64,000 nt of DNA. It comes from Escherichia coli (lineage in GTDB: Bacteria; Pseudomonadota; Gammaproteobacteria; Enterobacterales; Enterobacteriaceae). The notes under the pieces were generated by a model. That model did no database searches. It was not told the DNA's origin and was given only the letters and a program-made list of their open reading frames with translations. Of this stretch, positions 3,183 through 42,909 are shown piece after piece; positions within the stretch are counted from its first letter, which is position 1; each line of letters opens with the position of its first letter. The position numbers were made by a program, and so were the translations under genes. The stretch lies in the NCBI RefSeq assembly GCF_024298765.1, contig NZ_CP101210.1. One strand, written 5' to 3'.

Positions 3183-3197
3183 AGTCTCTCCTGAAGA

Positions 3198-4684: not shown

Positions 4685-4757
4685 CGATTTATTTTTTGCC
4701 TTAATGGCACGAACAGCAACGAGGAAGGGGAGTATTTCGACCGCTAGAAAAAAATTC

Positions 4758-4784
4758 TAAAGGTTGTGAGTGACCAGACGATAA
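4758..4784 (+). promoter_or_regulatory. Sigma-28 (FliA) class III promoter for fliC
   Basis: TAAA (4758-4761), 15-nt spacer, GACGATAA (4777-4784), about 75 bp upstream of the fliC ATG. Confidence 0.5.
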
Positions 4785-4860
4785 CAGGGTTGACGGCGAC
4801 GAAGCCGAAGGGTGGAAGCCCAATACTTAAACCGTAGACTTGAAAACAGGAAAATGAATT

Positions 4861-5910: not shown

Positions 5911-5928
5911 TGGCCTTAACCTGCCTGA

Positions 5929-5951
5929 CCCCGCTACCGGCGGGGTTTTTT
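5929..5951 (+). terminator. Rho-independent terminator after fliC
   Basis: GC stem CCCCGC / GCGGGG followed by a T-run (ccccgctaccggcggggtttttt). Confidence 0.6.
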
Positions 5952-6073
5952 CTGCCCGCAATTTACCGGTAACCCCCAAATAACCCCTCATTTCACCCAC
6001 TAATCGTCCGATTAAAAACCCTGCAGAAACGGATAATCATGCCGATAACTCATATAACGCAGGGCTGTTTATC

Positions 6074-6793: not shown

Positions 6794-6838
6794 CGTCAGT
6801 AAATGCCGCACTTTAACTTTGACTACCAGGAGTTCTTA

Positions 6839-7390: not shown

Positions 7391-7477
7391 ATAAGAATAA
7401 GATGTAGCGGAGTTGTTTTTGTGTTTACAAACAATGGCTCTACACTGCAAACAGACATAACAACATTCGGGGTAAAT

Positions 7478-9369
<1,892 letters not shown>

Positions 9370-9383
9370 CTCCGGGAACGCTC

Positions 9384-10052
9384 ATGCAAGAAAGTATACA
9401 ACTGGTTATTGATTCCTTGCCGTTCCTGCTGAAAGGGGCTGGGTATACGCTGCAACTCAGTATCGGCGGCATGTTTTTTGGCTTACTGCTCGGGTTTATT
9501 CTCGCGCTGATGCGCCTGTCGCCAATCTGGCCCGTGCGCTGGCTGGCGCGTTTTTATATCTCTATTTTTCGTGGTACACCGCTCATCGCACAACTGTTTA
9601 TGATCTATTACGGCCTGCCGCAGTTTGGTATCGAATTAGATCCCATTCCGTCAGCAATGATTGGTCTGTCGCTCAACACTGCCGCCTATGCTGCCGAAAC
9701 GCTGCGCGCCGCCATTTCTTCTATTGATAAAGGTCAGTGGGAAGCAGCTGCCAGTATTGGTATGACGCCATGGCAGACTATGCGTCGCGCGATTTTGCCA
9801 CAGGCGGCGCGGGTGGCGTTGCCGCCGCTGTCGAACAGCTTTATCAGCCTGGTAAAAGATACGTCGCTGGCCGCGACAATTCAGGTGCCGGAGCTGTTCC
9901 GTCAGGCGCAGTTGATTACCTCGCGCACGCTGGAGGTGTTCACCATGTACCTGGCGGCTTCGCTCATCTACTGGATCATGGCGACAGTATTATCGACGTT
10001 GCAGAACCATTTTGAGAATCAACTTAATCGCCAGGAGAGAGAACCAAAATGA
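9384..10052 (+). CDS. tcyL: Cystine ABC transporter permease
   Basis: 222-aa polar amino-acid ABC permease with multiple TM segments; operon with tcyN. Confidence 0.85.
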   Translation: MQESIQLVIDSLPFLLKGAGYTLQLSIGGMFFGLLLGFILALMRLSPIWPVRWLARFYISIFRGTPLIAQLFMIYYGLPQFGIELDPIPSAMIGLSLNTAAYAAETLRAAISSIDKGQWEAAASIGMTPWQTMRRAILPQAARVALPPLSNSFISLVKDTSLAATIQVPELFRQAQLITSRTLEVFTMYLAASLIYWIMATVLSTLQNHFENQLNRQEREPK

Positions 10053-10801
10053 GTGCCATTGAAGTTAAGAACCTGGTGAAAAAATTTCACGGTCAGACGG
10101 TGCTGCACGGTATCGACCTTGAGGTAAAGCCTGGCGAAGTGGTGGCAATTATCGGTCCGAGTGGTTCCGGCAAAACCACGTTGCTACGCAGCATAAATCT
10201 GCTGGAACAACCGGAAGCGGGAACTATCACCGTTGGCGATATCACTATTGATACTGCACGTTCATTAAGTCAGCAAAAATCGCTGATTCGCCAGTTGCGT
10301 CAGCACGTCGGGTTTGTCTTCCAGAACTTTAATTTGTTTCCGCATCGTACGGTGCTGGAAAACATTATTGAAGGGCCGGTGATCGTCAAAGGCGAACCGA
10401 AAGAAGAGGCCACGGCGCGCGCTCGCGAGCTGTTGGCGAAAGTTGGGCTGGCCGGTAAAGAAACCAGCTATCCACGTCGTTTGTCTGGCGGTCAACAGCA
10501 ACGTGTTGCGATTGCACGTGCGCTGGCAATGCGTCCTGAGGTGATTTTGTTTGACGAGCCAACGTCGGCGCTGGATCCAGAGCTGGTGGGCGAAGTCCTG
10601 AACACCATCCGTCAGCTGGCGCAGGAAAAGCGCACGATGGTGATTGTGACGCACGAAATGAGCTTTGCCCGGGATGTTGCGGACCGGGCGATTTTTATGG
10701 ACCAGGGGCGGATAGTCGAGCAGGGGGCAGCAAAAGCGTTATTTGCCGATCCCCAGCAGCCTCGCACCCGCCAGTTCCTCGAGAAGTTTCTGCTGCAATA
10801 A
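10049..10801 (+). CDS. tcyN: Cystine ABC transporter ATP-binding protein
   Basis: Walker A GPSGSGKTT, ABC signature LSGGQQQRVAIARAL, Walker B ILFDEPTSALD. Confidence 0.9.
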   Translation: MSAIEVKNLVKKFHGQTVLHGIDLEVKPGEVVAIIGPSGSGKTTLLRSINLLEQPEAGTITVGDITIDTARSLSQQKSLIRQLRQHVGFVFQNFNLFPHRTVLENIIEGPVIVKGEPKEEATARARELLAKVGLAGKETSYPRRLSGGQQQRVAIARALAMRPEVILFDEPTSALDPELVGEVLNTIRQLAQEKRTMVIVTHEMSFARDVADRAIFMDQGRIVEQGAAKALFADPQQPRTRQFLEKFLLQ

Positions 10802-11030
10802 TAAGAAAAAATCAGCCCCGACGATTCACCTGTCGGGGCGGGACGCCATTTCAAGCGTGATAAAACAGCTTAACAAATCAGCATAACTCATTAATAACAT
10901 AAGAGAATGCGATGGCTTGCAAAAGTAATTCATTGCCTGAATAATATAAATTATATATAAATCTTATTTATGTGATAGTTTGAATTATCATTATAAATGA
11001 TACTCACTCTCAGGGGCGTTGCGGTTTACT

Positions 11031-11753
11031 ATGCAGGATACGGATTTTTTCAGCTGGCGTCGCACGATGCTGTTGCGTTTTCAGAGGATGGAGGCCGCAG
11101 AAGAGGTCTACCATGAAATAGAGCTTCAGGCTCAGCAGCTAGAGTACGATTACTATTCGTTATGTGTTCGCCACCCGGTACCATTCACGCGACCTAAAGT
11201 GGCTTTCTACACCAATTACCCTGAGGCGTGGGTTAGTTATTATCAGGCAAAAAACTTTCTCGCAATTGATCCGGTGCTGAACCCTGAAAACTTTAGTCAG
11301 GGCCATTTAATGTGGAATGATGACTTATTCAGCGAAGCACAGCCGTTATGGGAAGCCGCGCGCGCACATGGTTTACGCCGCGGTGTCACTCAGTATTTAA
11401 TGCTGCCAAACCGGGCGCTGGGCTTTTTGTCCTTTTCCCGTAGCAGCGCGCGCGAAATACCCATTCTTAGTGATGAACTGCAATTAAAAATGCAGTTACT
11501 GGTGCGCGAAAGTCTGATGGCTCTGATGCGTTTAAATGATGAAATAGTGATGACGCCAGAGATGAATTTCAGCAAGCGCGAAAAAGAAATTTTGAAATGG
11601 ACGGCGGAAGGGAAGACATCAGCAGAGATAGCGATGATTTTGTCAATCTCTGAGAATACGGTCAATTTCCATCAGAAAAACATGCAGAAAAAAATCAATG
11701 CACCGAATAAGACCCAGGTTGCCTGTTACGCGGCCGCTACTGGCTTAATTTGA
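11031..11753 (+). CDS. sdiA: LuxR-family quorum-sensing regulator SdiA
   Basis: Autoinducer-binding domain plus C-terminal LuxR HTH; MQDTDFFSWRRTML start gives 240 aa. Confidence 0.9.
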   Translation: MQDTDFFSWRRTMLLRFQRMEAAEEVYHEIELQAQQLEYDYYSLCVRHPVPFTRPKVAFYTNYPEAWVSYYQAKNFLAIDPVLNPENFSQGHLMWNDDLFSEAQPLWEAARAHGLRRGVTQYLMLPNRALGFLSFSRSSAREIPILSDELQLKMQLLVRESLMALMRLNDEIVMTPEMNFSKREKEILKWTAEGKTSAEIAMILSISENTVNFHQKNMQKKINAPNKTQVACYAAATGLI

Positions 11754-11819
11754 TCTCTTTTCTTTCTGCGTGCCAGATGCAAAAACCGGCTGAAAGGCAC
11801 GCTATCAGCCGGTTTTATA

Positions 11820-12044
11820 TTACTGACGGTAGGCTTGTTTAATTTGCTTAACCGTTTTGGAAAATACTGCAGCCTGGGTTTCGTCTTCGATCAGCGCAAG
11901 CTGTTTTTCCATCTTTAACATCACGCGGCCCGCGTCAGCTTGTCCCATCGCCTGCAGCATCAGCGTCAGCATCGCTTTCAGGCAGGAGACTTCATTTGCC
12001 AGTTCTTGATTATTCTCGGCAGTAGAAAAATCAGGCGTACTCAT
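11820..12044 (-). CDS. yecF: Small protein YecF
   Basis: 74-aa ORF in the conserved position between sdiA and uvrY. Confidence 0.65.
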
Positions 12045-12502
12045 TTATTTTCCTCGTCATGTTGCAATGAAAATTTGCGGTGAAAAATGTTAAGGCGGCG
12101 GAGTATACCATAAGCTTTGCTAAAAATAGCAGTGGTTGTTTTTTGAGCGTATCGTCAACGGTGCTATTAAATGCGTTAATATAATGACCAATAAATATTT
12201 TTATCATGAATGTTTTTTGCCCGTATTGTTCGGGTTAATTAATGTTACATATTCAGCGGGCTGATTTTCATTTTTGCTGAATAAAGGTAATTTTTGTCAC
12301 ATTTCGTCGCAGGGCTTACTGTGAAACGATCCGGTAAGCCGTTGGTGACGGGCGTGACCATAACTGTGGACAATCGAATTGACAAAAACGAGAGAAAAAT
12401 CGAATACCCACCATTTTTAACGTTTCAAAGTTGCAATAAAAACCGCTAATATACGAATGACTAACTATCAGTAGCGTTATCCCTATTTCTGGAGATATTC
12501 CT

Positions 12503-13159
12503 TTGATCAACGTTCTACTTGTTGATGACCACGAACTGGTGCGCGCAGGGATACGACGCATTCTGGAAGATATAAAGGGTATAAAAGTCGTCGGTGAGGC
12601 ATCGTGCGGTGAAGACGCCGTTAAGTGGTGCCGGACAAATGCCGTTGACGTGGTGCTAATGGACATGAGTATGCCGGGCATTGGCGGTCTTGAGGCGACG
12701 CGTAAAATCGCGCGTTCCACAGCTGATGTCAAAATCATCATGCTTACCGTCCATACAGAAAACCCTTTACCAGCGAAAGTCATGCAGGCCGGTGCTGCGG
12801 GCTACCTCAGCAAAGGCGCGGCTCCGCAGGAAGTCGTGAGTGCGATTCGTTCTGTCTATTCAGGGCAGCGTTACATTGCTTCTGACATCGCTCAACAAAT
12901 GGCGTTAAGCCAGATCGAACCAGAAAAAACAGAAAGCCCATTTGCCAGTTTGTCTGAACGTGAATTGCAGATTATGCTGATGATCACCAAGGGCCAGAAG
13001 GTCAATGAGATCTCAGAACAGCTCAATCTCAGTCCGAAAACGGTGAACAGCTACCGCTATCGTATGTTCAGTAAACTAAACATTCATGGCGATGTTGAGC
13101 TGACTCACCTGGCAATTCGCCATGGTCTGTGTAATGCGGAGACATTATCAAGTCAGTGA
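12503..13159 (+). CDS. uvrY: Response regulator UvrY (BarA partner)
   Basis: Receiver domain ([12 protein letters not shown]...D) plus LuxR-type HTH; TTG start; overlaps uvrC. Confidence 0.9.
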
Positions 13160-14988
13160 GTGATCAGTTTGACGCAAAAGCGTTTTTAAAAACCGTAACC
13201 AGCCAGCCAGGCGTTTATCGCATGTACGATGCTGGTGGTACGGTTATCTATGTCGGCAAAGCGAAAGACCTGAAAAAACGGCTTTCCAGCTATTTCCGTA
13301 GCAACCTCGCTTCGCGCAAAACCGAAGCGCTGGTCGCCCAGATCCAGCAAATTGATGTAACGGTTACTCATACAGAAACCGAAGCGCTGTTGCTGGAACA
13401 CAACTACATCAAACTCTATCAGCCGCGTTACAACGTTTTGCTACGCGATGATAAATCTTATCCCTTTATCTTCCTGAGTGGCGATACCCATCCGCGTCTG
13501 GCGATGCATCGTGGTGCGAAGCATGCTAAAGGTGAATATTTCGGCCCGTTCCCGAATGGCTATGCCGTACGTGAAACACTGGCGCTACTGCAAAAGATAT
13601 TCCCCATTCGCCAGTGCGAAAATAGTGTTTATCGCAATCGCTCGCGTCCGTGTCTGCAATATCAGATAGGGCGCTGTCTGGGACCGTGCGTTGAAGGACT
13701 GGTGAGTGAAGAAGAATACGCTCAGCAGGTCGAGTATGTGCGCCTGTTTTTGTCTGGCAAAGATGATCAGGTGCTTACGCAACTCATTAGTCGTATGGAA
13801 ACTGCCAGCCAGAATCTGGAGTTTGAAGAAGCGGCACGTATTCGCGACCAAATTCAGGCGGTGCGACGCGTCACCGAAAAACAGTTTGTGTCCAATACCG
13901 GCGACGACCTCGACGTTATTGGTGTGGCGTTCGATGCGGGCATGGCTTGTGTCCACGTATTGTTCATTCGTCAGGGTAAAGTGCTCGGCAGCCGCAGCTA
14001 TTTCCCGAAAGTGCCTGGCGGTACGGAACTGAGCGAGGTGGTGGAAACCTTCGTAGGTCAGTTCTATTTACAAGGCAGCCAGATGCGCACCTTACCGGGT
14101 GAGATCCTGCTCGATTTTAATCTTAGCGATAAAACGCTGCTCGCCGATTCCCTTTCAGAACTGGCGGGACGCAAGATTAATGTTCAAACCAAACCTCGCG
14201 GCGATCGGGCGCGTTATCTGAAACTCGCGCGCACCAATGCGGCGACGGCATTAACCAGCAAACTTTCGCAGCAATCTACCGTTCACCAGCGACTGACCGC
14301 GCTTGCCAGCGTGTTGAAATTGCCGGAAGTGAAGCGGATGGAATGCTTTGACATCAGCCATACCATGGGGGAACAAACCGTCGCTTCCTGTGTGGTGTTT
14401 GATGCTAACGGCCCGCTGCGTGCGGAGTATCGACGCTATAACATTACTGGCATCACGCCGGGCGATGATTATGCGGCGATGAATCAGGTGCTGCGTCGGC
14501 GTTATGGTAAAGCCATCGACGAGAGTAAGATCCCGGATGTGATCCTTATCGACGGCGGCAAAGGCCAACTTGCGCAGGCGAAAAATGTTTTCGCCGAACT
14601 GGATGTCTCATGGGATAAAAATCATCCGCTGCTACTAGGCGTTGCCAAAGGAGCAGATCGTAAGGCTGGGCTGGAAACGCTGTTCTTTGAGCCGGAAGGT
14701 GAGGGATTCAGTTTGCCGCCAGATTCTCCCGCACTGCATGTTATCCAGCATATTCGCGATGAATCACACGATCACGCGATTGGCGGGCACCGTAAAAAAC
14801 GGGCGAAGGTCAAAAATACCAGTTCCCTGGAAACCATTGAAGGCGTCGGGCCAAAACGTCGGCAAATGTTGTTGAAATATATGGGCGGTTTGCAAGGTTT
14901 ACGTAACGCCAGCGTCGAGGAAATTGCAAAAGTGCCGGGTATTTCGCAAGGTCTGGCAGAAAAGATCTTCTGGTCGTTGAAACATTGA
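13156..14988 (+). CDS. uvrC: Excinuclease ABC subunit C
   Basis: 610-aa ORF with GIY-YIG N-terminus ([24 protein letters not shown]) and C-terminal HhH. Confidence 0.9.
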
Positions 14989-15044
14989 TGTCTCTGTAGC
15001 AACATAGGGGTAATCTTACTGACAACAGATAGTTACCCGTCATT

Positions 15045-15593
15045 ATGCAATTTAATATCCCTACGTTGCTTACACTGTTCCGTGTCATCCTTATCCCATT
15101 CTTTGTATTGGTCTTTTATCTGCCTGTCACCTGGTCGCCGTTTGCCGCCGCGCTCATTTTCTGCGTCGCGGCGGTGACTGACTGGTTCGATGGTTTTCTG
15201 GCACGCCGCTGGAACCAGAGTACCCGGTTTGGTGCTTTCCTTGACCCTGTAGCAGATAAAGTTCTCGTGGCTATCGCCATGGTGCTGGTAACCGAGCATT
15301 ATCACAGCTGGTGGGTGACCTTACCGGCAGCAACGATGATCGCCCGTGAAATTATTATTTCTGCGTTACGCGAATGGATGGCGGAGTTGGGTAAACGCAG
15401 TAGCGTGGCTGTCTCCTGGATTGGGAAAGTGAAAACCACTGCCCAGATGGTGGCGCTGGCCTGGCTGCTGTGGCGTCCGAACATTTGGGTTGAGTACGCC
15501 GGTATTGCACTTTTCTTTGTGGCTGCGGTACTGACTCTGTGGTCAATGTTGCAATATTTGAGCGCTGCGCGTGCAGATTTGCTTGATCAGTGA
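15045..15593 (+). CDS. pgsA: CDP-diacylglycerol-glycerol-3-phosphate 3-phosphatidyltransferase
   Basis: 182-aa membrane protein with CDP-alcohol phosphotransferase motif (DG...AR...G...LD...DK). Confidence 0.9.
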
Positions 15594-15744
15594 TCGTTTC
15601 GGCGCAATTTTCAGCAAACGATCAAAAGTGGTGAAAAATATCGTTGACTCATCGCGCCAGGTAAGTAGAATGCAACGCATCGAACGGCGGCACTGATTGC
15701 CAGACGATAATAAAATCAAGTGATTAACTGATTGCTTGATGAAT

Positions 15745-15820
<76 letters not shown>

Positions 15821-15874
15821 GTTTAAAAGACATCGGCGTCAAGCGGATGTCTGGCTGAAAGGCCTGAAGAATTT

Positions 15875-15948
15875 GGCGCGTTAACAAAGCGGTTATGTAG
15901 CGGATTGCAAATCCGTCTAGTCCGGTTCGACTCCGGAACGCGCCTCCA
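15875..15948 (+). tRNA. cysT: tRNA-Cys (GCA)
   Basis: 74-nt sequence ggcgcgttaacaaagcggtt...cgcctcca; anticodon loop attGCAaat. Confidence 0.9.
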
Positions 15949-15960
15949 CTTTCTTCCCGA

Positions 15961-16047
15961 GCCCGGATGGTGGAATCGGTAGACACAAGGGATTTAAAAT
16001 CCCTCGGCGTTCGCGCTGTGCGGGTTCAAGTCCCGCTCCGGGTACCA
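15961..16047 (+). tRNA. leuZ: tRNA-Leu, long variable arm; integration target of the prophage
   Basis: 87-nt sequence gcccggatggtggaatcggtagac...tccgggtacca; its 3' half is duplicated at 53405-53459. Confidence 0.9.
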
Positions 16048-16116
16048 TGGGAAAGATAAGAATAAAATCAAAGCAATAAGCAGTGTCGTGAAACCACCTT
16101 CGGGTGGTTTTTTTGT
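15993..16116 (+). repeat. attL: 124-bp direct repeat (3' half of leuZ plus downstream terminator)
   Basis: Identical by eye to 53405-53528; includes the leuZ terminator hairpin gaaaccaccttcgggtggttttttt. Confidence 0.85.
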
Positions 16117-16588
16117 ATTTGTATTTTGAGCAATGGCGGTAGAGTGGCGGTGGTGTGGCGATATGCAGAAACAATAATGGTGGTGCACGTGCTGTTTAAG
16201 CTCTAAGGATGAAGCAGAATTCTCCTGCAGCTCCTCCGTATTTCGCATAGTGAACCAAGACTTCGGTTAAACAAAATTTTTCTGGGATTTTTCCACTCGA
16301 CTTCATTTTTCCTCCAGTCATCCACCAAAGGTACCTGCGCTAATCTATCTTTTTTAATCTGACAACATCCTGAGAAAAGGCAAATTCGTCAGATTTACTG
16401 TTTTTTCTGCTGCTTCGAATGCCGATGTCTGCAGTACTGATAAGAGCTCTATCTCTTTGATATAGATCTTTTTTTTGATGAATTGCTCGACATATTATCG
16501 TTATGACACCTTCTTGTTAAAGGTGTTGTACTCCACATCTCGATTTTATGATGTGGGTTATGATTGGTTAGTAATAGAGTGTATCGGT

Positions 16589-16870
16589 ATGCGATGTGGT
16601 TTATTAATGGCAATATGCTTTTGTTTGGTATCTTTTAGTGGGTATGCAGCAACAGGAAAGTCTGATGTTCAGATCAAGAAAGAAATAATTAAAGAATCCA
16701 TTGAATCATATCCAGGCAATTGTGCGTGTCCTTATAATCATGCAAGGAATGGTAGTAGGTGTGGTGGACGCAGTGCATATAGCCGTACTGGAGGGTATGA
16801 TGTGGTATGTTATGAGAGTGATGTTACTGATGAAATGATCCGGCAATGGAAGCAGGAGAATGCTGATTAA
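16589..16870 (+). CDS. Hypothetical secreted cysteine-rich small protein (prophage moron)
   Basis: Signal peptide MRCGLLMAICFCLVSFSGYA followed by a Cys-rich mature region (GNCACPYNH...RCGG...VVCYESD); AT-rich. ORF finder extends it to 16475. Confidence 0.4.
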   Translation: MRCGLLMAICFCLVSFSGYAATGKSDVQIKKEIIKESIESYPGNCACPYNHARNGSRCGGRSAYSRTGGYDVVCYESDVTDEMIRQWKQENAD

Positions 16871-17061
16871 TTACTTTTGACTGGTTTGTTTTGCGAGCAT
16901 TATGTGTGTTGTTAACGGTACCCTAGCTAAGTGAGAGTTCCAAAATAAAACCCGCAGTTTTTACGCTGCGGGTTTTATTGTTTCTGTCGATGGGATAGGG
17001 TGCCACTTCGGCCAGCCTTGGCAACCGATTGACGGGGGATTACTCCCCCGTCGCGGTTTCC

Positions 17062-17202
17062 TTACTGCTTACACTGTAAGAACGCCGCAAACTCCGCTCC
17101 CCAGAAGCTCATCCGTATTTCACACAGCGAACCGTGCAGCATCCAGATGATGAGGATTACCGTCACGCAGAACGTGATGGCCGTAAGCGATTTTTGCGAC
17201 AT
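17062..17202 (-). CDS. Hok/Gef-family type I toxin-like small membrane peptide
   Basis: 46-aa translation MSQKSLTAITFCVTVILIIWMLHGSLCEIRMSFWGAEFAAFLQCKQ: TM helix followed by SLCEIR and E(F/V)AAF, the Hok family pattern. Confidence 0.55.
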   Translation of the reverse strand: MSQKSLTAITFCVTVILIIWMLHGSLCEIRMSFWGAEFAAFLQCKQ

Positions 17203-17383
17203 AGCGCTTGCTCCTTTTTAGGGGAGGCGCTAACCTATCACTTGCTAAGGTTAGATGGTTAGGGCCTCGGTTAAACAGAGATGTTTTCCGGGGCCTTTCC
17301 ACATCTGGCCTTCGGGCATACCCTCCGACCATCAGCCGAAAGGCACCCGCGCGTAATCTATCGTTTTTTTGTTGCTTCGGCAA
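17120..17383 (-). CDS. Mok-like overlapping reading frame (translational coupling frame for the hok-like gene)
   Basis: 87-aa ORF overlapping the hok-like gene in another frame, as in hok/mok/sok loci. Confidence 0.3.
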   Translation of the reverse strand: MPKQQKNDRLRAGAFRLMVGGYARRPDVERPRKTSLFNRGPNHLTLASDRLAPPLKRSKRYVAKIAYGHHVLRDGNPHHLDAARFAV

Positions 17384-17392
17384 TTCTGCTCG

Positions 17393-17653
17393 TTAATTCT
17401 GAGGTAAAGGCAAACTCATCTGATTGTTTCCCCTGTGTGACGTTGGCAGTTCATGCCACGGGATACCTTCTGAAGATCGAACGCCTGAGGTGTGTTTCGA
17501 TGTGAATTTATGGAAAGCTTCCAGTGTTGAGAAGCATACGCCGCATTCCAGGTTGTTACACTGGTAATACTTTTGTCGGACGGTGTTTGAATCATTTTCC
17601 GGACGACTTGTGCGGATACGGGCAGATGCGCCACAAAGCGGACAACGGAACAT
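17393..17653 (-). CDS. ogr: Ogr/Delta-family zinc-finger late-gene transcription activator
   Basis: MFRCPLCGASARIRTSRP...YYQCNNLECGVCFSTLE: Cys4 pattern and N-terminus resemble P2 Ogr. Confidence 0.8.
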   Translation of the reverse strand: MFRCPLCGASARIRTSRPENDSNTVRQKYYQCNNLECGVCFSTLEAFHKFTSKHTSGVRSSEGIPWHELPTSHRGNNQMSLPLPQN

Positions 17654-17896
17654 AGCAACCTCCCTTTAGGTGGTGCTATTCTAAACTTCATCAATGCAGA
17701 TTCCAACTCCTTCCCACTTTAAGCGAAGGATGGTGATAAAGTCAGAATATGTTAGATGAAGTCTAAACGGGCGATAAGTTTTCCAATATTTGAATAACAA
17801 CGTGGCAGGATTTTTGTTTATCAATTATCTTACACTTTTAAGTGTAATAAATTTGTTAGTGATGACAATATTGTGAGAGGAGATTATCAATTGAAG

Positions 17897-19360
17897 ATGG
17901 CAAAAAATAACAATGATAAAATGCGGGCAAAGTATAGGCCGTTCATAAATATATGGGAACATCTTCCTTCTGAGTTCAATGAACTCATCAAGACGTTAAT
18001 GGTGCTGATACGGCAAGGGGAAAATGTGGGAGCTCAGCAAAGGGAGCTTGATTCCATCGAAAACTTCAAACACCTGTTAAGTGGATGGAAGCGGGCGCAA
18101 AGGATCATAGCTGATGAACTCATTATCAGGCTTTCTCAAATCAAGGATCTGGAGTTAGAAAAGAATTGTGCCCATTCAAAAAAGGACTATGAAACAAAGA
18201 AGAAGTGTATACGCAATATTGAAAGGACTAGACTAGAAATTAGGATTTTACGTAGGTGCATTGATTCAATTGTATGGGCGATATTCCGCAATGAACACTC
18301 GTCTATAAGACGGTTACCTATAAATAGAAATACTGACAATCTGACAATATTTAATATACATGATTCAATGGTGGTAGCAGATGAAATCAATGCTGATCCG
18401 ATGGCTATAGCTGTTATCACTGATATTACTACGTTTGTACATACTGGTGATTTACTTGCGTTAATACCTCAGCAAGGCATAACTTTAATTGAAATAAAAA
18501 GTGGTAAGAAAAATATAGAGTTTTCAAAGGCGGCTATGTTCTCAGTGCAAAGTAAATGTCTTCATTTTGATGAGATTTATAGAAAAGACCTTGATAAAAA
18601 TGACTTGAAACACTATGACAGAGCTAAGCGTCAACTTAAAAGAGCTCAAAATGTGATAGATGTCATTGAAACTGGTAAGGGATTTGATAACTTTTTTCAG
18701 TCTCAAGTAACAATTCATGACAGAGATTTTTGTCCCGATTTTTATACAGATAAGATTATTGAGCTTTGGTATGAGATATATAACGGTAAAACTTGGGCGA
18801 TTACTGACATTAATGATTGTTTATTCCTTGGGGCATATATTAATTCTAATATGGGTTTTTGCGGTTTTAATGGATGGATGGAGGTATCTAGAATATCGGG
18901 GAGAGTGTTTAATATTCTTGATAGCTTTTCAGATGCTTTATCACGTCCATTTTTTAGTTTGAACCTACCTGATAAATTGCTTCTGGATATCATTAATGGC
19001 AATCTAATTGTTGTGCTGTGTTTCGATCATCGTCGTTTCGTAGAAAGAGCAAATAAAAAATACCCCGGGATTTATGAGTTATTGGACTTTCCATCTCCGA
19101 AGATTAATCCTATGAGTATGCTTTCCATCAATGGGAAGGGGGTAGTTTCTAGTGTTGATGGACAGAGTGTTTTTATTGGAAATGGTTACGAAACACGGAT
19201 TATTTTTGATCAGCAATATCCAGATAGTCTGATTAAGTGGTCATACCATATGAGTGATCTCAAAAAAAATATTGATAAAAAAAAGCGTAAAATGAAAAAG
19301 GAAACGCAAAGAAAAATAAAAGAGAAAAGAAAACGTAGCAGAAAACAATGCTTAAACTAA
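17897..19360 (+). CDS. Hypothetical 487-aa protein, AT-rich orphan moron between ogr and gpD (candidate accessory or defence gene)
   Basis: Long ORF in a very AT-rich island; RBS GAGAGGA upstream of ATG 17897 (ORF finder starts at GTG 17873); possible PD-(D/E)xK-like motif GD...EIK; Lys/Arg-rich C-terminus. Confidence 0.55.
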   Translation: MAKNNNDKMRAKYRPFINIWEHLPSEFNELIKTLMVLIRQGENVGAQQRELDSIENFKHLLSGWKRAQRIIADELIIRLSQIKDLELEKNCAHSKKDYETKKKCIRNIERTRLEIRILRRCIDSIVWAIFRNEHSSIRRLPINRNTDNLTIFNIHDSMVVADEINADPMAIAVITDITTFVHTGDLLALIPQQGITLIEIKSGKKNIEFSKAAMFSVQSKCLHFDEIYRKDLDKNDLKHYDRAKRQLKRAQNVIDVIETGKGFDNFFQSQVTIHDRDFCPDFYTDKIIELWYEIYNGKTWAITDINDCLFLGAYINSNMGFCGFNGWMEVSRISGRVFNILDSFSDALSRPFFSLNLPDKLLLDIINGNLIVVLCFDHRRFVERANKKYPGIYELLDFPSPKINPMSMLSINGKGVVSSVDGQSVFIGNGYETRIIFDQQYPDSLIKWSYHMSDLKKNIDKKKRKMKKETQRKIKEKRKRSRKQCLN

Positions 19361-19490
19361 CACATCTAATGCTTTAATTTGCTTTACTGTTACAATGTCC
19401 GCTTACTGGTACAGGGCGGACTGCCATATTAGATTTGGTTCTATCTCGTAAGAGTGGCCGTTCAGGTCTGCACTAATACATCTGAATGGT

Positions 19491-20600
19491 TCACTCTGTT
19501 TCTGCTATCCATTCCGGGATTTTTGCTTCAAGCTCAAGCTGAGTGGTAAAGCCGCTGTTATCAATGGTGTGCTCGGCTTTTGCAATAATCCAGTCCTGAT
19601 TATCAATCTCGCTTTTAAATCCTGTTACCGTGCCATGCATTTCGGGGAAGAGTTCTGCGCGTCCGCGTGCCAGTGTGATGGAGAATGATGCGGCTCCGCG
19701 TTGTAGTTGTTGCCACTTTGCCGCCGCTGCGCGTCTTGCTGCCTGCTCGTTCTGATAAGTCTTGCGTAACACAAACACATTGCCTTCCGCGCCTTCCATA
19801 TAATCACCTTCACGGCTGCTGCTTTTCTCTTTTTTCGGTTTTGGCGGTTTGCGGCGTTTCACGCTGACTTTTTTCTTTTTCCCGTAATTAAGATCAAGCC
19901 AGTAAGCGCGTACCCCCGTATACGCCTCGCGGTCAGCAATGCGGAACTGATGGCGATCGCCGCTGCTGCGTGTGATGGCGAACGATGGCAACGGCTGGCC
20001 CTGTGCGTTCACGCCACCGCCGGGCATGATGAATAACAGATTACCGCTTTTTACCGTGGTGATTGCGCCCAGCATTTCCGCCATGCGCGTAAGGAAGGAC
20101 ATGTCACTTTCTTCGGTCTGGTCGGCGTGGTCGATTTCGATATGCATCAGCATTTCGCTGATTTGCGGTTTCAGACCGTACCGATGAGCGATGGCGGATA
20201 CCACACGCTCAACGGTCACATCATGCCAGGACACCTCACGTTTAACGTTAAATTCATCCCGAAAATCTGCGCTTCTGGCTGAAACAGTCAGCCTGTCCGG
20301 CGGTCCTTCGTGTGCGATTTCATCGACAATGTAAGAGCCTTTTTCTGTCAGCGGTTCGCCTTTCCAGCCAATGAGAACCGTCAGGCGCGCGCCCCGTGGC
20401 GGTAGCCGCAACTGACCATCCGCATCATCCAGCGTGATGGTGAGCTGGTCTGCCTCAAATCCCCGGTTGTCGGTCAGCGACAGGCTCATCAGGCGCTCTG
20501 CCACGCCGGACAGCGTTTTACCCTCCGCGAGAATATCAAAATCCGGCATTTTTACGGGGTCTGTGCCCTGACTGAGCAATTGCATGGTGGTGTCGGTCAT
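19491..20600 (-). CDS. Tail protein gpD (P2 D homologue)
   Basis: Start at MTDTTMQLL with a GGGAGGG RBS; the ORF finder extends it to 20732. Confidence 0.8.
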   Translation of the reverse strand: MTDTTMQLLSQGTDPVKMPDFDILAEGKTLSGVAERLMSLSLTDNRGFEADQLTITLDDADGQLRLPPRGARLTVLIGWKGEPLTEKGSYIVDEIAHEGPPDRLTVSARSADFRDEFNVKREVSWHDVTVERVVSAIAHRYGLKPQISEMLMHIEIDHADQTEESDMSFLTRMAEMLGAITTVKSGNLLFIMPGGGVNAQGQPLPSFAITRSSGDRHQFRIADREAYTGVRAYWLDLNYGKKKKVSVKRRKPPKPKKEKSSSREGDYMEGAEGNVFVLRKTYQNEQAARRAAAAKWQQLQRGAASFSITLARGRAELFPEMHGTVTGFKSEIDNQDWIIAKAEHTIDNSGFTTQLELEAKIPEWIAETE

Positions 20601-20757
20601 CTGTTCCCTCCCTGTGCGGCATGGTCGCATGTGCGTGCGGCGGGGGTTACTGCTTTTTGTTGTCGCCGGGTCGGGAGAACGGCGCAGGGGTGAGATTACG
20701 CGCGTGGTGGGTGATGATTGTTGCCGAATCATTTAACGGATACAAGGGGCTGAAGCT

Positions 20758-21942
20758 ATGAGTGAAACTCGTTTTCATGGTGCCCGTGTTACGGAAAATA
20801 CCGACCTGGTAACAGCGATTAACGATGTTGATTCCAGCGTTATCGGTATCGTGGCAACGGCGGATGATGCGGACGCGAAGCTGTTCCCGCTGAACAAGCC
20901 CACACTGCTGACCCGCGTCAATGACGTGCTGGGAAAATGCGGGACAACGGGGACGCTTTATCGTGCGCTTAAGGCCATCGCAGACCAGGTGAGCACAAAG
21001 GTGATCGTCGTTCGCGTGGCTGAACACAAAGAAGAAGACGGAAAGACGCAGGATCAACTGGTTATCGGTGGTTCTGAGGATGACGGCAGCTATACGGGGA
21101 TGTATGCGCTGCTTGTTGCAGAGCAGGATGAAAGCATCGGATACCGTCCGCGTATTCTGGCCGCGCCGGAGCTGGACACGGAGGCGGTAACAAAATCCCT
21201 GTGCGTGATTGCGGGTAAACTGCGCGCGTTTGTGTATGCCTCATGTCACGGCTGTAACACGATGGCTGAGGCGATTACCTACCGCCAGAAATTCAACGAA
21301 CGTGAGGTGATGCTTTTATGGCCGGACTTCATCGCCTACAACCCGAAAAGTGGCAAAAACGAAACGTTCCCCGCGCCTGCCTATGCGTGCGGCCTTCGTG
21401 CGTACATTGACCATGAGCAGGGCTGGCACAAATCGCTGTCCAACGTTCCTGTTAAAAATGTGCTGGGAATGTCCAGGCATGTGTTCTGGTCGTTGCAGGC
21501 CGAAGACAGTGATGCCAACAGCCTCAACAACAAAGAAATCACGACCATTATTCGTCGCAACGGGTTCCGCTTCTGGGGCAACCGCACACCGGAAACGAAC
21601 GCCTACATCTTTGAGGTGTATACCCGAACCGCACAGGTGCTGGCTGATTCAATTGCGGAAGCGCAGTTTGAAACCATCGACAGTCCACTGACGCCTGCGA
21701 ACGTGAAGGATGTTATCAGTGCCATCAGGGCAAAACTGGATTCACTGGTTACTGCCGGGAAACTGATTGGCGCGGAGTGCTGGTATGACGTGGTGGATAA
21801 CAGCACCACGGATTTACGTCAGGGGCGTGTGCGTATTCGCTACAAATATACGCCTGTTCCGCCACTGGAAGACATGGAGCTTTACCAGACGTTTACTGAT
21901 GAATACTTTGAACCTGCATTTGCGGTGCTGGGAGGTGCCTGA
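20758..21942 (+). CDS. Contractile tail sheath protein (P2 FI homologue)
   Basis: 394 aa with conserved sheath motifs (RILAAPELDT, WPDF, IRRNGFRFWGNRT, YTPVPPLE). Confidence 0.9.
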   Translation: MSETRFHGARVTENTDLVTAINDVDSSVIGIVATADDADAKLFPLNKPTLLTRVNDVLGKCGTTGTLYRALKAIADQVSTKVIVVRVAEHKEEDGKTQDQLVIGGSEDDGSYTGMYALLVAEQDESIGYRPRILAAPELDTEAVTKSLCVIAGKLRAFVYASCHGCNTMAEAITYRQKFNEREVMLLWPDFIAYNPKSGKNETFPAPAYACGLRAYIDHEQGWHKSLSNVPVKNVLGMSRHVFWSLQAEDSDANSLNNKEITTIIRRNGFRFWGNRTPETNAYIFEVYTRTAQVLADSIAEAQFETIDSPLTPANVKDVISAIRAKLDSLVTAGKLIGAECWYDVVDNSTTDLRQGRVRIRYKYTPVPPLEDMELYQTFTDEYFEPAFAVLGGA

Positions 21943-22454
21943 TGGCTGTGCCAAAACATCTTCGCTTTTTTACGCTGTTTGTGGATGGTGAAAACGAAGT
22001 GGGTAAGGTGACGTCCGTCACTCTGCCTAAGCTGACGCGCAAAACCGACAGCTACCGGGGGGGTGGCATGATGGGTGCGGTAAGTATTGATCTCGGTCTG
22101 GACGACTCCGCGCTTGATGCGAGCTTTGTCATGGGGGGCGCAGTTCGTGAGCTGTTCCTGAAGTATGGCGGCACGATTGACGGCACGCTACTGCGTTTTG
22201 CGGGTGAATACTACACCGATGCAGAAAGCGACCTGTATGAAGTCGAAATGCGCGGACGTGTGACGGAAATTGATATGGGGGAAGCCAAACAGGGCGAAGC
22301 CACATCACACACTTACGCCATTAAAAACACCTACTACAAGCTGAGTGTTAACGATCGCCCGTTGTGGGAGATTGATCTGCTGAACTTCATTTACCGGAAG
22401 GACGGCAAGGACATTGTGCCCGATCGCATCCGTTCCGCGCTTGGGCTTGGCTGA
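21942..22454 (+). CDS. Tail tube protein (P2 FII homologue)
   Basis: 170 aa immediately after the sheath gene with an ATGA overlap. Confidence 0.85.
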   Translation: MAVPKHLRFFTLFVDGENEVGKVTSVTLPKLTRKTDSYRGGGMMGAVSIDLGLDDSALDASFVMGGAVRELFLKYGGTIDGTLLRFAGEYYTDAESDLYEVEMRGRVTEIDMGEAKQGEATSHTYAIKNTYYKLSVNDRPLWEIDLLNFIYRKDGKDIVPDRIRSALGLG

Positions 22455-22508
22455 TAAGTAATATGCAGGCGGCGCAGTGCGTCGCCTCTGACTGAAAGGA
22501 GTTTCCTG

Positions 22509-22874
22509 ATGAAAGAGACGAAAAACATCGATACCGAAAACACGGTAGTTACTGACACTGTGAAAGAAACCAGTGAGCGTGGCGTAAAACTTACCCAACC
22601 AATTGAGCGAGGCGGCGAAAAAATCACGTATGTGGATATCACCGGGGCTATTGAGCAGGCTGGATCTCTGCGAGATTTGTCGCTGTCTGATGTGCTGAAT
22701 CTGAAAGCGGAATCCATGTTTACGCTGCTGTCACGCGTGACATCACCGCGACTGGATGAAGTGACGATCAAAAAAATGGCATCCCGTGACTTTATTCAGT
22801 TATGTGTGGTTGCCGTAAATTTTTTGAGCGGTGCGGACTCTGGCGGGAAGAACGAACAGGCGACGGAAGCCTGA
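22509..22874 (+). CDS. Tail assembly chaperone gpE
   Basis: Small ORF between tube and tape measure containing the T6G slippery site. Confidence 0.7.
   Translation: MKETKNIDTENTVVTDTVKETSERGVKLTQPIERGGEKITYVDITGAIEQAGSLRDLSLSDVLNLKAESMFTLLSRVTSPRLDEVTIKKMASRDFIQLCVVAVNFLSGADSGGKNEQATEA
22820..22826 (+). other. Programmed -1 ribosomal frameshift slippery heptamer TTTTTTG (E to E+E')
   Basis: TTTTTTG inside gpE; the -1 frame continues as FFERCGLW... to 23038. Confidence 0.5.
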
Positions 22875-32664: not shown

Positions 32665-33015
32665 TTACTCCCTTAGCGTGATGGTTAATTCAACATTCTG
32701 CATGGTCTGCATGACAGTGCCCGACAGCGTCACCCCGGCGCGGCCTCCTGCCTTCCAGACAACGTCGATGGCATCCAGGGCAATGCGGGGTTCCCATCGT
32801 GTCAGCGCAATCACGGCAGCACTCATGCATTGCAGACGCGTGGTGTTATTCATGGGTTCGTCAATCAAATCAGGCACAAGGCTGCCATATTCCCGTCGCA
32901 TAACCCGGCTTGCCAGCGGGGTGGTCAGGATGTCCCTGACTGACTGTTTCAGGTGCTCCATATCGTTCAGGTTTCCCGTCCCGTCCGGATTCATTCCTGT
33001 GTAGCGGGTTGTCAC
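32665..33015 (-). CDS. Baseplate protein gpW
   Basis: 116 aa in the V-W-J-I-H order. Confidence 0.85.
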   Translation of the reverse strand: MTTRYTGMNPDGTGNLNDMEHLKQSVRDILTTPLASRVMRREYGSLVPDLIDEPMNNTTRLQCMSAAVIALTRWEPRIALDAIDVVWKAGGRAGVTLSGTVMQTMQNVELTITLRE

Positions 33016-33593
33016 TGCGGGCCTCCTGTCGAATCGCTGCCGCCTTTCACGCCACCGTGTTTATGCGTATGCACTGTGATGCCGTTTGAGGTGAAATCGC
33101 CGCCGCTGTGCGTGATATTGCCGCTCATCTTTCCCCCTTTTGTGACGTCAAGCGTCGCTGTTCTCAGAAGGTCTGTGCATTCCACGACGGGCGCGTCCAG
33201 TGTCACGCTGACGGATGCCTGCAGGGTGGCTGTTTTCATGCCGCTGGCGCTCAGCGCGCCTGCGTCCGCGTCGTAGCGGAACACCGCGCCGTCCGGCGCG
33301 CTGACCACGATTTCTTTCAGGCTTTTGCCGGGGGGCGGACTGGCATCACTCCACAGGCTGCCAATTATCATGGCGGTTTCCGGGTTGCCGCCAATGCAGG
33401 CAATTACCACCTGTTCGCCGGGTGATGGCGGCAGCCACACATTGAAGGCTCCCGCGCGCGTGGTGTTCCAGCGCAGCCAGCCTGTTTCCAGTCCGCCGCT
33501 GCGAACGCGCACGCGCCAGGACTTCTCATCAACTTCAGAGATGATCCCGGTACGGATGATATTGCTCAGCAGTCGCATGAGTTCTGCGCTCAC
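33012..33593 (-). CDS. Baseplate spike/assembly protein gpV
   Basis: 193 aa upstream of W. Confidence 0.8.
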   Translation of the reverse strand: MSAELMRLLSNIIRTGIISEVDEKSWRVRVRSGGLETGWLRWNTTRAGAFNVWLPPSPGEQVVIACIGGNPETAMIIGSLWSDASPPPGKSLKEIVVSAPDGAVFRYDADAGALSASGMKTATLQASVSVTLDAPVVECTDLLRTATLDVTKGGKMSGNITHSGGDFTSNGITVHTHKHGGVKGGSDSTGGPQ

Positions 33594-34234
33594 CGTACAG
33601 CCTCCGCAATCCGACCCAGCACCGTGTTATAAATCAGGCGCTCATCTGCCTGGCTGATACCCAGCAGCTCACGTACCGGGTAATCGGTGAAAATGCCCGG
33701 CGCAACCTGATCGCGCTCACCGAACTGATGAACGCGTGCAATACGTGCGGCCACGCCGCTGTAACCCACCGTCACACCGGAAGCATCTGCACGGGCTTTC
33801 AGGTAGCGGGCGGTGCGCAGTTTTACGAACATGGGGACGCGCTTTGTGCTGTCCTGGTTGATGCGCCGGGTGCGTATTTCCAGAAAACGGTCGATGTCAT
33901 CCCGGTAAAACGTGCGGATATTGTTTTTATCCTCATCCCACCCGGTAATGGTTCGCCCGTATTTCCCCGTGTCGTGATGCCAGTTTTTCAGCGTGCGTGC
34001 TTCGTTATTCCAGATAAAGCGAATGCGCTCCTGTATCCGGGTTACGCGGCGTCTGCGAGGTGTCCACGCGGTCCCGTCCGGCGCTTTCTGTGACCGGATA
34101 CGTGCCTGCTGGGCGCGGCGTAAATCCTGTGCCAGCTTTCTGGCGATGTTATTGATGACCTGCTGATTCAGGCTGTCGCGGATGGCCTCAAAGGTTTCAT
34201 CCACACGGGTGAATGCCTTATCCATCGCTTTCAC
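33590..34234 (-). CDS. Tail completion protein gpS
   Basis: ORF after R; start uncertain (the ORF is longer than P2 S). Confidence 0.7.
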   Translation of the reverse strand: MKAMDKAFTRVDETFEAIRDSLNQQVINNIARKLAQDLRRAQQARIRSQKAPDGTAWTPRRRRVTRIQERIRFIWNNEARTLKNWHHDTGKYGRTITGWDEDKNNIRTFYRDDIDRFLEIRTRRINQDSTKRVPMFVKLRTARYLKARADASGVTVGYSGVAARIARVHQFGERDQVAPGIFTDYPVRELLGISQADERLIYNTVLGRIAEAVR

Positions 34235-34685
34235 CCCACGTCACATCCTGGAATACATGCGACCAGTCGCCTTCGGAAGAGGGCAGACGGGGTTTTGGCT
34301 CTGGCAGGTGTTCTGCCTGCGGTGTACCCTGACTGCTGCGCGTAATGCGAACGCGTTCCCGCAGGGGGAGCGTAAACAGGAGATCGGCGCTGTCATCGTC
34401 ATTGATAACGGCGGAAAATTTGATGTCCTGATTACGCTCCGGATTGAGCAACAACTGTGGCTGATTTTCGGATAACCACGCCAGTAGCGGCAGCGTGAGG
34501 TCGTCCAGCTCCCCGGCGTAATCCATGACAAACATCACCATCTGATAGCGGTAAACAAACGAGGGCGTTTCTCCGGTCGTTTCAATGTTGCCGCTCTCCA
34601 CGAAAATGGTGAATTTTTCCGGGTTGGCCTGACACCATCGGCATGAACGGGTCATGGCTTCACGCAGGGAATCAGTTTTCAGCAT
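34218..34685 (-). CDS. Tail completion protein gpR
   Basis: 155 aa, same length as P2 R. Confidence 0.8.
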   Translation of the reverse strand: MLKTDSLREAMTRSCRWCQANPEKFTIFVESGNIETTGETPSFVYRYQMVMFVMDYAGELDDLTLPLLAWLSENQPQLLLNPERNQDIKFSAVINDDDSADLLFTLPLRERVRITRSSQGTPQAEHLPEPKPRLPSSEGDWSHVFQDVTWGESDG

Positions 34686-34962
34686 GGTTGTTGTCCTCGT
34701 TGTTCAGTCGTTGCAGCCTGCGCTGTTCCAGTAATTCAATGGCCCGTTTATCCGCGTTACAGGTTTCCAGTGCATCCAGAAGGCGGTCGCCCCATATACC
34801 GAGATTTCCCCATGTGGGAGTGTCAGGGAAGGGGGGAGGCGTTACCGGTATGGTCAGCGTCTGCGGTATAAGCCGGACTGACGGCGCTGGCCGTGGCGCG
34901 TTCTGCGTGCCTGCGCAGCCTGTCAGTAAAACGAGCGTCAGGCAAAGCGTGGGCGCATTCAT
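34672..34962 (-). CDS. Rz1-like outer-membrane lipoprotein spanin (LysC-like)
   Basis: Lipobox LTLVLLTGC, Pro-rich mature part, embedded out of frame in the Rz-like gene. Confidence 0.5.
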   Translation of the reverse strand: MNAPTLCLTLVLLTGCAGTQNAPRPAPSVRLIPQTLTIPVTPPPFPDTPTWGNLGIWGDRLLDALETCNADKRAIELLEQRRLQRLNNEDNNHAEN

Positions 34963-35230
34963 CTTTTGCAATATCGTTGCGTAGCTGTTCACGTCTTGCC
35001 TCTCCGTCCTGATTGCGTTGCTGATTTTCCACGCGGAGTTGCGCCAGCACCTGCTGCATATCCTGTACCCCGGCGCTAATGATATTCAGGGTGTCGGCGG
35101 TACGTTTCAGGGTGCTGGCCTGCGCTTCGTTTCTGGCGTTCTCCCGGCCCAGCGACCATGACAGACGCATGGATGTTCCCCATGCGGCAATCAGAAGGAA
35201 AGCGACACCCAGCGTGGGCCAGAGCTTCAT
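34823..35230 (-). CDS. Rz-like inner-membrane spanin (LysB-like)
   Basis: N-terminal TM MKLWPTLGVAFLLIAAWG then a coiled-coil-like region; start chosen at the internal Met. Confidence 0.5.
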   Translation of the reverse strand: MKLWPTLGVAFLLIAAWGTSMRLSWSLGRENARNEAQASTLKRTADTLNIISAGVQDMQQVLAQLRVENQQRNQDGEARREQLRNDIAKDECAHALPDARFTDRLRRHAERATASAVSPAYTADADHTGNASPLP

Positions 35231-35619
35231 GCCGGATAGACTCCGTGTGGTAACTGAAAATGCGGTCCGTCTTTCAGGGTCTTCCAGTCGCCGCCCCATT
35301 CCACCGGAATATTCAGCTCCCGGCTGGCCTGTCTGAATGCTGCTGCGATTTTTTCGTACAGCGGCCATTCCCATGACACCTGGCTGCCGATATAAGCCAC
35401 AACATCCACGGCATGTCCCGTAAGGTGGCGGCTGTTCATGGTCTGGCTCTTACCTGTGGCCACAAGTTGCTTCTGGCGGTAACGGCTGCGCAACCCTTCG
35501 GTGATACCAAAATCCACTTCCGAAATTTCCAGTGCCCGTCGGGTCACTTTCACCAGATCAGGATTTACGCCCTGCAAATTCTTTTCGCTCCGGCTGCTGA
35601 ATTTAAATGTGTTGCTCAT
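35227..35619 (-). CDS. Endolysin, peptidase M15 (VanY/L-Ala-D-Glu peptidase-like)
   Basis: 130 aa with Zn-binding-like motif SRHLTGHAVDV...W; sits in the lysis cassette after the holin. Confidence 0.65.
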   Translation of the reverse strand: MSNTFKFSSRSEKNLQGVNPDLVKVTRRALEISEVDFGITEGLRSRYRQKQLVATGKSQTMNSRHLTGHAVDVVAYIGSQVSWEWPLYEKIAAAFRQASRELNIPVEWGGDWKTLKDGPHFQLPHGVYPA

Positions 35620-42870: not shown

Positions 42871-42909
42871 AATTGTGCAAATTTGTGCACTATTGTGCAT
42901 TTGTATAGT
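42871..42909 (+). promoter_or_regulatory. Iterated TTGTGCA repeats and candidate -10 (TATAGT) upstream of the cargo operon
   Basis: aaTTGTGCAaatTTGTGCActaTTGTGCAtttgTATAGTg: three copies at about 10-11 bp spacing followed by a -10-like hexamer. Confidence 0.4.

Follow-up and report, generated by a model that had tools for sequence, protein, structure and literature searches.

Packaging signals of lambda and of the P2 family

In phage lambda, TerS binds the R3, R2 and R1 repeats of cosB beside cosN, with TerL brought into position on cosN by a bend between R3 and R2 (PMC4856287). The lambda cos site also makes use of IHF and of static bends (PMC4856287). For P2, P4, 186 and their relatives, a "55-bp cos region" is quoted (Ziermann & Calendar 1990, as cited in PMC3931495 and PMC9594776). 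Transduction of P2/P4 cosmids is more than 1000-fold better when their cos flanks are longer (PMC9594776), which is consistent with a function of the flanks in cos but not specific to any element within them. Next to cos, P2-like phages have the tin/old hotspot described by Rousset et al. (PMC9122126).

Here we analyse a stretch of Escherichia coli DNA of 64 kb, hereafter the window, in which a preliminary description had noticed phased TTGTGCA repeats in front of a cargo operon and had read them as sites of a regulator that would make expression of the cassette conditional. We consider it rather probable that the three repeats are instead the distal subsite of an extended cos packaging signal of a P88-type, P2-family prophage. 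The features on which the analysis rests are as follows.

39651–41402, plus strand: terminase large subunit gpP (Pfam)
41402–42448, plus strand: portal protein gpQ (Pfam)
42758–42776, no strand: putative cos core of 19 nt, gggctgttcccccgtcacc, counterpart of the P2 cohesive end (13 of 19 positions agree with the reverse complement of P2 GGCGAGGCGGGGAAAGCAC)
42780–42802, plus strand: short hairpin (gcgcag...tgcgt) and T-run, from the cos core to the proximal site, terminator-like in the scan
42801–42808, plus strand: proximal site, the fourth TTGTGCA, with GTGCA at +45 and a GTGCAC palindrome (sequence)
42809–42865, no strand: spacer between the proximal and distal sites, constant in length and variable in sequence across lineages (lineage comparison)
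42866–42872, plus strand: A7 tract directly 5′ of the first distal repeat, conserved as (T)CAAAAAAA in most P88-type lineages
42873–42899, plus strand: distal array, three TTGTGCA copies, with GTGCA at +117, +127 and +137 from the start of cos (sequence; position counts across relatives)
42900, no strand: boundary between conserved backbone and variable hotspot (homology ends at 42899; 39 junction classes follow)
42904–42909, plus strand: TATAGT, the −10 candidate of the preliminary description (no −35 at a 16–18-bp spacer; TATGGT in the 81%-identical copy)
42908–42935, plus strand: candidate cargo promoter, −35 GTGAAA (42908–42913), 16-bp spacer, −10 TATACT (42930–42935) (scan)
42979–45506, plus strand: three-gene cargo operon, 42979–44358, 44369–44713 and 44697–45506 (ORF list)
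45552–48344, minus strand: replication protein gpA (Pfam)

The prophage and the repeat array

The closest phage records to the prophage in the window are P88-type Peduoviridae (Xuanwuvirus, Gemsvirus), and its type of cos region is present in 1139 of 5426 complete E. coli genomes. The N-terminus of gpP is a helix-turn-helix domain (Terminase_5, Pfam). The interval from the portal gene to gpA consists of a 530-bp intergenic region and three plus-strand ORFs, and corresponds to the cos-proximal tin/old hotspot. The gpA of the window has 930 aa versus 761 aa in P2; its Phage_GPA domain begins at residue 194, giving an N-terminal extension of about 190 aa.

The three copies of TTGTGCA are exact and occupy 42873–42879, 42883–42889 and 42893–42899. 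The preliminary description had the copies right, but had put them about 10–11 bp apart and had run the array to 42900, whereas the spacing is exactly 10 bp and the third copy ends at 42899. As it also stated, TATAGT lies 3′ of the triple at 42904–42909, and the cargo ORF has its first in-frame ATG (frame checked) 70 nt further on, at 42979. A fourth exact copy is found at 42801–42807. The heptamer as such is not enriched in the window (13 copies versus 15.4 expected); it is the sole heptamer in the 64 kb that is present three times at a period of 9–12 bp, and a phased heptamer triple of any kind arose in one of 200 dinucleotide-preserving shuffles. The earlier argument that copies phased on one face of the DNA suggest cooperative binding by a protein is still a sound one.

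Read by eye, the heptamer does not fit a DnaA box, a CRP, FNR or Ogr site or a Cox box. The P2 Ogr/Delta site is a TGT-N12-ACA dyad centred about 55 bp 5′ of the start, and none of the three TGTs of the array has ACA after 12 nt (by eye). The Rfam covariance models gave no match to the array element; the nearest hit is a sub-threshold match to the gyrA family outside it, at 42454–42507 on the minus strand (22 bits versus a gathering score of 45, E = 0.008). This match overlaps a hairpin right after the portal stop, which is most likely the terminator of the portal operon.

The putative cos core and its flank

The putative cos core is GC-rich and lies between the portal gene and the gpA-side hotspot, as in the P2 family. 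The 19-mer is near-invariant in diverged lineages, with 16 of its 19 columns invariant across four of them; it is exact in Enterobacter phage phiT5282H, and shows single substitutions in an element of E. coli JML285 (L353) and in another Peduoviridae lineage of E. coli (L354). The core is followed by the short hairpin, the T-run and nTGCA in the same order in the window, P2 and P4, and a hairpin with a T-run is located at the equivalent place in P2, P4, 186, phiCTX and Smp131. The distance from the proximal to the first distal site is 72 bp, or about seven helical turns, in both the P88 type and the P2 type, and the spacer itself is unalignable between lineages. The nearest match to the IHF consensus WATCAANNNNTTR, at 42863–42875, is off by one base (by eye) and is not conserved across lineages.

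Three further observations concern this flank. A direct repeat ACGGATCC, comprising two BamHI sites, is found within the cos spacer at 42811–42818 and 42822–42829 with 11-bp spacing; it is conserved in the E. coli P88-type phages and not in the diverged lineages. The ends of the linear P884B11 record, equivalent to window positions 42854/42855, were considered as cos and rejected, as these ends are arbitrary and the near-invariant 19-mer at 42758–42776 matches the P2 cos together with its flanks. The P88_4B11 record (NC_049391; L002 3300–3310 compared with window 42750–42776) has an altered sequence, shorter by 5 bp, inside the putative 19-nt core (aaacctgtccccccgtcacc), possibly an artefact of assembling the cohesive ends.

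Association of the repeats with the phage backbone

Homology between the window and 16 P88-type phage records begins at the portal gene and stops at or before 42901, mostly at exactly 42899, which is the last base of the third repeat. In a scan for the exact pattern, at least 120 viral contigs contained the triple, and the first 25 nt directly after it made up about 60 different sequences. Loci picked by portal identity alone, a set that is unbiased as to the repeats, contain the triple in nearly all cases, about 424 nt past the portal stop, with occasional one-base variants (TCGTGCA, TTGTGCG, TTATGCA). For position counts, 83 unique sequences were gathered without reference to the repeats, via portal identity or the 19-mer, and offsets were taken from the first base of the 19-mer. 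GTGC[AG] starts at +45 in 77 of the 83, at +117 in 75, at +127 in 77 and at +137 in 74, and hardly elsewhere.

When the window is aligned with phiT5282H, a second Peduoviridae lineage of E. coli and a satellite-like element, only three blocks are invariant across the four lineages, namely the cos box, the T-run with GTGCA, and the three distal repeats; the spacer has diverged beyond recognition yet has kept its length. In the same way, the P88 positions are occupied by GTGCA-type sites in Novemvirus phiT5282H and in the E. coli lineage L354, although the spacers of both have diverged.

The sequences that follow the third repeat fall into 39 junction classes, in which the first gene points inward in 21 and outward in 14, and no gene was called in the other 4. 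The inward-facing classes often have a terminator hairpin abutting the repeats, and in P88 itself a terminator and minus-strand genes come after them. The array persists whatever follows it, in either direction, and therefore does not appear to be a cassette-specific operator. Judged from these comparisons, the three repeats are part of the conserved phage backbone or cos region and not of the cargo cassette. The assignment of the repeats to the cargo cassette in the preliminary description thus has to be given up, given the end of homology with P88-type phages at 42899 and the presence of the array across all 39 junction classes. The same description had named a lack of conservation in orthologous cassettes as evidence against itself; the repeats were found to be conserved, but independently of the cassette.

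The boundary at 42900 is sharp to the nucleotide. This would be explained by the array being the last part of cos under constraint, beyond which the DNA is free to vary. A cassette coding for an S8 peptidase and an AAA ATPase bears on how such DNA moves. It is found both in E. coli phages (L129 and L154, with portals about 100% identical to that of the window) and in the Enterobacter phage phiT5282H, and it carries the same third-repeat variant, TCGTGCA, in the E. coli phages and in the spacer-diverged phiT5282H. The shared variant in the phages of both hosts places the crossover within or just 5′ of the array. These sequences suggest that the array is likely a homology anchor for cassette exchange.

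Several unrelated cargo classes open with an inverted repeat, ATTACC-N5-6-GGTAAT(TTT). In phiCTX, GGTAATTT repeats are located a little further from cos. The loci for these observations are L050, L083 and L300 (first 60 nt past the third repeat) and L345 (index 200–300). Both the ATTACC/GGTAAT repeats and those of phiCTX may be operators of a cassette-borne regulator.

The same layout in P2-type phages, distant genera and satellites

A P2-type set was assembled from 48 non-redundant sequences with a portal at least 99% identical to that of P2. In this set, ATGCA starts at +43 in 46 of the 48, at +111 to +115 in 42, at +124/+125 in 29 and at +135 to +138 in 19, with a background rate elsewhere of about 0.01–0.02 per 10 nt; the third distal site is thus loose in P2-type phages. 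The DNA past about +55 is unalignable in these phages, and the columns around the ATGCA sites are without consensus. Column profiles give CATGCAAA at +114 to +121 and ATGCA at +125 to +129. The proximal site of the P2 type is a dyad, ATGCAgtTGCAT, at +43. The sites are confined to one side of cos. There is no ATGCA in the 150 nt on the Q side, compared with 50 at +19 to +60 and 99 at +105 to +150 on the hotspot side, and all four copies in the window are likewise on the hotspot side.

Phages 186 and PSP3 have ATGCA in the P2-type pattern. The Pseudomonas phage phiCTX and the Stenotrophomonas phage Smp131 have CTGC[AG] at about +44, +115 and +125, the individual copies in phiCTX lying at about +44, +98, +114 and +124. 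The base before TGCA is therefore A in P2, 186, PSP3 and P4, G in the P88 type, and C in phiCTX and Smp131, and this discriminator base is not absolute, as single A/G exchanges are seen. The terminases of the window and P2 have diverged (gpM 37% identical, gpP 44% identical). E. coli phages include both an ATGCA and a GTGCA type, and each motif goes with a cos core of its own.

The satellite P4 and three relatives, which have only the cos region in common with P2, contain ATGCA at +43, +115, +125 and +138. In these satellites the array lies 3′ of the converging psu gene, and nothing is transcribed outward. The satellite-like E. coli JML285 element L353 (NZ_AP024114.1 3986584–3993743, L353 1–7160), of the P88 cos type, provides a comparable case for the window. 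Its sole similarity to the window is the segment 42740–42899, at 81.5% identity, which starts 18 bp ahead of the cos core and stops with the final base of the third repeat, and its GTGCA copies are at +45, +117, +127 and +137. It has an integrase, a toprim primase, an ogr/delta-like gene (a zinc finger), a P2-family capsid-like gene and MazEF. Since a satellite must share its packaging signal with its helper, the segment common to L353 and the window would outline this signal, which ends at the third repeat. The L353 gene annotated as P2-family major capsid protein codes for 423 aa, and the element may be a P2-family satellite with a capsid-like gene of its own. Among viral contigs, a search for P4-type satellites with a P88 cos gave no matches to psu, sid, delta or alpha, and only two loci had a P4-like integrase; L353 came from a subsequent search of E. 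coli genomes.

The cargo operon and its promoter

The cargo ORFs gave no Pfam, PADLOC or significant PDB sequence match. The first cargo protein contains GELLDNAERH and DSSGTGTIELL, which by eye resemble the N-box and G-box of GHKL-type ATPases, a prediction made without a tool match. Of 5426 E. coli genomes, 23 contain the first 1.5 kb of cassette DNA (42900–44400). In L354, the same hotspot has a homologue that is 51% identical to the first cargo protein and lies 213 nt from the array behind unrelated DNA. In E. coli TOE17 (L348 2501–3400), an IS1 interrupts the first cargo gene about 26 nt from its start; the array and the next 105 nt are intact there, and beyond the IS1 a truncated cox and an integrase indicate that the prophage has been rearranged or deleted.

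The TATAGT proposed earlier as a −10 element is without an acceptable −35 at a 16–18-bp spacer, the TTGTGC of repeat 2 being 15 bp away, and it reads TATGGT in an 81%-identical cassette that lies directly after the array in another P88-type prophage. We therefore do not retain it. The scan of 42300–43300 reported a sole sigma-70-like site, GTGAAA-16-TATACT, with matches at 9 of 12 positions. The 81%-identical cassette keeps 42900–42935 and diverges right past TATACT. On this comparison, the cargo promoter most likely lies within 42900–42935 and corresponds to GTGAAA-16-TATACT. The position of the L354 homologue, 213 nt from the array behind unrelated DNA, also argues for a promoter borne by the cargo itself.

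A start near 42942 would put the array at about −43 to −69, so that UP-like input, or interference by a bound protein, is possible. In P2, the old-tin −35 (TTGAAT), inferred from the annotated starts at 33424 and 33426 in NC_001895, overlaps the third ATGCA repeat (TTGAATGCA), and outward-facing cassettes can evidently exploit the array. The third repeat was also considered as a general −35 and rejected, as its distance to the best −10-like hexamer varies among the outward classes and most classes are inward. With regard to the regulatory reading of the preliminary description as a whole, the one-face phasing and a cargo promoter just 3′ of the repeats are upheld, but the repeats as an element of the cassette are not.

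Proposed role of the array

We propose that the array is probably bound by terminase, by analogy with lambda cosB. Binding of terminase to the nTGCA sites, proximal as well as distal, would be cooperative and would bend or wrap the spacer; the contacts would be made by the small subunit, gpM, and/or by gpP with its N-terminal helix-turn-helix. The spacer bent or wrapped in this way would set the nuclease on the cos core, in the way that lambda TerS uses R3-I1-R2-R1 of cosB. Lineages with different cos cores and terminases differ in the base before TGCA, and this base would therefore contribute to packaging specificity. As the outermost constrained piece of cos, the array would at the same time fix where the defence-gene hotspot begins on the left and provide the last homology available for cassette exchange. 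A comparison of gpM and gpP was considered as a way of picking the binding subunit, but both have diverged (37% and 44%) and it is uninformative. The array and the genes for terminase and head are on opposite sides of cos, and the role of the array could be in cleavage geometry or termination rather than in initiation; should packaging in the P2 type begin from the Q-side end, the last-packaged end would be the one with the array, and a different role would be needed.

Four other explanations have to be weighed against a cos subsite. The original one, in which a regulator acts through the repeats, as operators or activator sites, on a TATAGT promoter and makes cargo expression conditional, has the geometry in its favour, for the repeats lie 5–31 bp 5′ of TATAGT, their position of about −43 to −69 from the start predicted from TATACT is typical of activators and UP elements, and the third repeat of P2 overlaps an inferred −35. 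However, conservation of the repeats follows the backbone instead of the cassette, the array is present where the next gene converges or is absent (25 of the 39 classes, as well as P88, 186, P4, phiT5282H and the satellite L353), the L354 homologue stands well away from it behind unrelated DNA, the TATAGT has neither a properly spaced −35 nor a constant sequence, and no regulator gene is evident in the cassette by Pfam or PADLOC; we regard this explanation as quite improbable. A second possibility is a combined use. The array would be a cos subsite first, and outward cassettes, such as that of the window and old-tin of P2, would recruit the last repeat or repeats as a −35 or UP-like element, with late occupancy by terminase modulating the cargo. 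The overlap in P2, the A/T-rich array directly 5′ of the candidate promoter of the window, and the 36-bp block that is common to both cassette versions and abuts the third repeat are all in line with such recruitment. Against this, the spacing from repeat 3 to the best −10-like hexamer differs among the outward classes (by eye), and the L354 homologue lies 213 nt away, which makes it unlikely overall, although less so than the purely regulatory explanation.

The sharpness of the boundary, to about 1 nt, could alternatively point to an attC/attI-like recombination site at which a dedicated recombinase swaps defence cassettes, and the common starting nucleotide of the 39 classes would follow from it; the S8 peptidase/AAA cassette, shared between E. 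coli P88-type phage (L129, L154) and phiT5282H together with the TCGTGCA variant, agrees with it. Yet no recombinase is associated with the hotspot, satellites retain the array without a hotspot on that side, and a sharp edge is to be expected if the array is merely the last constrained, homologous segment. Moreover, in the P2 type the variable DNA begins already at the proximal site and the distal motifs are kept inside it, which fits selection on a functional site. We give this explanation the least credence of all. It is also conceivable that the element is intrinsically bent or is a site for a host nucleoid or architectural protein, with no sequence-specific recognition by terminase, considering that A- and T-tracts flank the proximal and distal sites and that lambda cos uses IHF and static bends (PMC4856287). 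A reader encoded by the phage is favoured over a host factor because two motif types occur in one host species, each with its own core and diverged terminases; the motif differs again in the Pseudomonas and Stenotrophomonas phages, and there is no good IHF consensus, the nearest being off by one base. The involvement of a host protein or a bend alone thus seems about as improbable as the operator reading. The cos subsite is the explanation that we prefer.

Implications

If the array is a subsite for recognition by terminase, the packaging signal of P2/P4 would extend over about 160 bp (−18 to +141) instead of the 55-bp core usually quoted. A signal of this length would explain why P2/P4 cosmids with longer flanks are transduced better by orders of magnitude, and would offer a rational minimal signal for phage-based delivery vectors. 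The A, G or C before TGCA, together with the cos core, would form a rule for predicting the compatibility of helpers with satellites or cosmids. The start of the P2-family defence hotspot at one exact nucleotide would also be accounted for, and the conserved array is suggested to serve as the homology arm by which cassettes pass from one lineage to another. In annotation, phased repeats that are conserved 5′ of hotspot cargo would then not be read as operators of the cargo.

A broader generalization is that the Peduoviridae and their satellites share an unrecognised bipartite cos module, consisting of an nTGCA dyad at about +44 and a phased array at about +115/+125/+135, in which the A/G/C base defines compatibility groups and the edge of the array is the universal left boundary and homology anchor of cassette exchange. 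We put this forward tentatively, and hold it to be somewhat doubtful in its full extent.

Comparison with known systems

The promoter of old-tin in P2 resembles the situation in the window in that transcription proceeds outward from beside cos into the hotspot. It differs in that the best promoter candidate of the window is wholly in cargo DNA 3′ of the array, and the array is also found in many phages and satellites without any outward gene. In the phiCTX record (NC_003278), a repeat-containing "region3" (R4–R6; 35310..220) spans the cos flanks; R4–R6 may or may not be the CTGC[AG] copies or the GGTAATTT-type repeats further out.

As in the 55-bp cos region of P2, P4, 186 and their relatives, the core in the window lies between the portal gene Q and the tin/old hotspot, with a GC-rich core of 19 nt, a hairpin, a T-run and a proximal nTGCA, while the phage of the window has a core of its own and G rather than A before TGCA. 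The 55-bp region includes the proximal site and excludes the distal array (+115 to +140). Homology-based descriptions of cos would miss the array because it sits in DNA that is unalignable between P2 and P4. The distal repeats are not described in the accessible literature, which treats the P2/P4 cos only as the 55-bp region.

Compared with lambda cosB, neither the sequence nor the terminase family is related, the distal copies in the window are short direct repeats (5–7 bp core) exactly one helical turn apart, the proximal copy is a dyad in P2-type phages, and there is no convincing IHF site in the window; in the window cos separates the array from the terminase and head genes, and binding of the array by terminase is a proposal. 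The organization is parallel. In both, a short sequence recurs three or four times, always to one side of the nicking site, one copy is proximal and further copies are distal across a spacer of constrained length, A/T tracts or bends lie between the elements, and the whole signal extends about 120–150 bp from the nick site. With repeats that are one-sided, fixed in distance and phase and shared by satellites, the array has the sequence features of the cosB-like class, as a candidate terminase-binding subsite.
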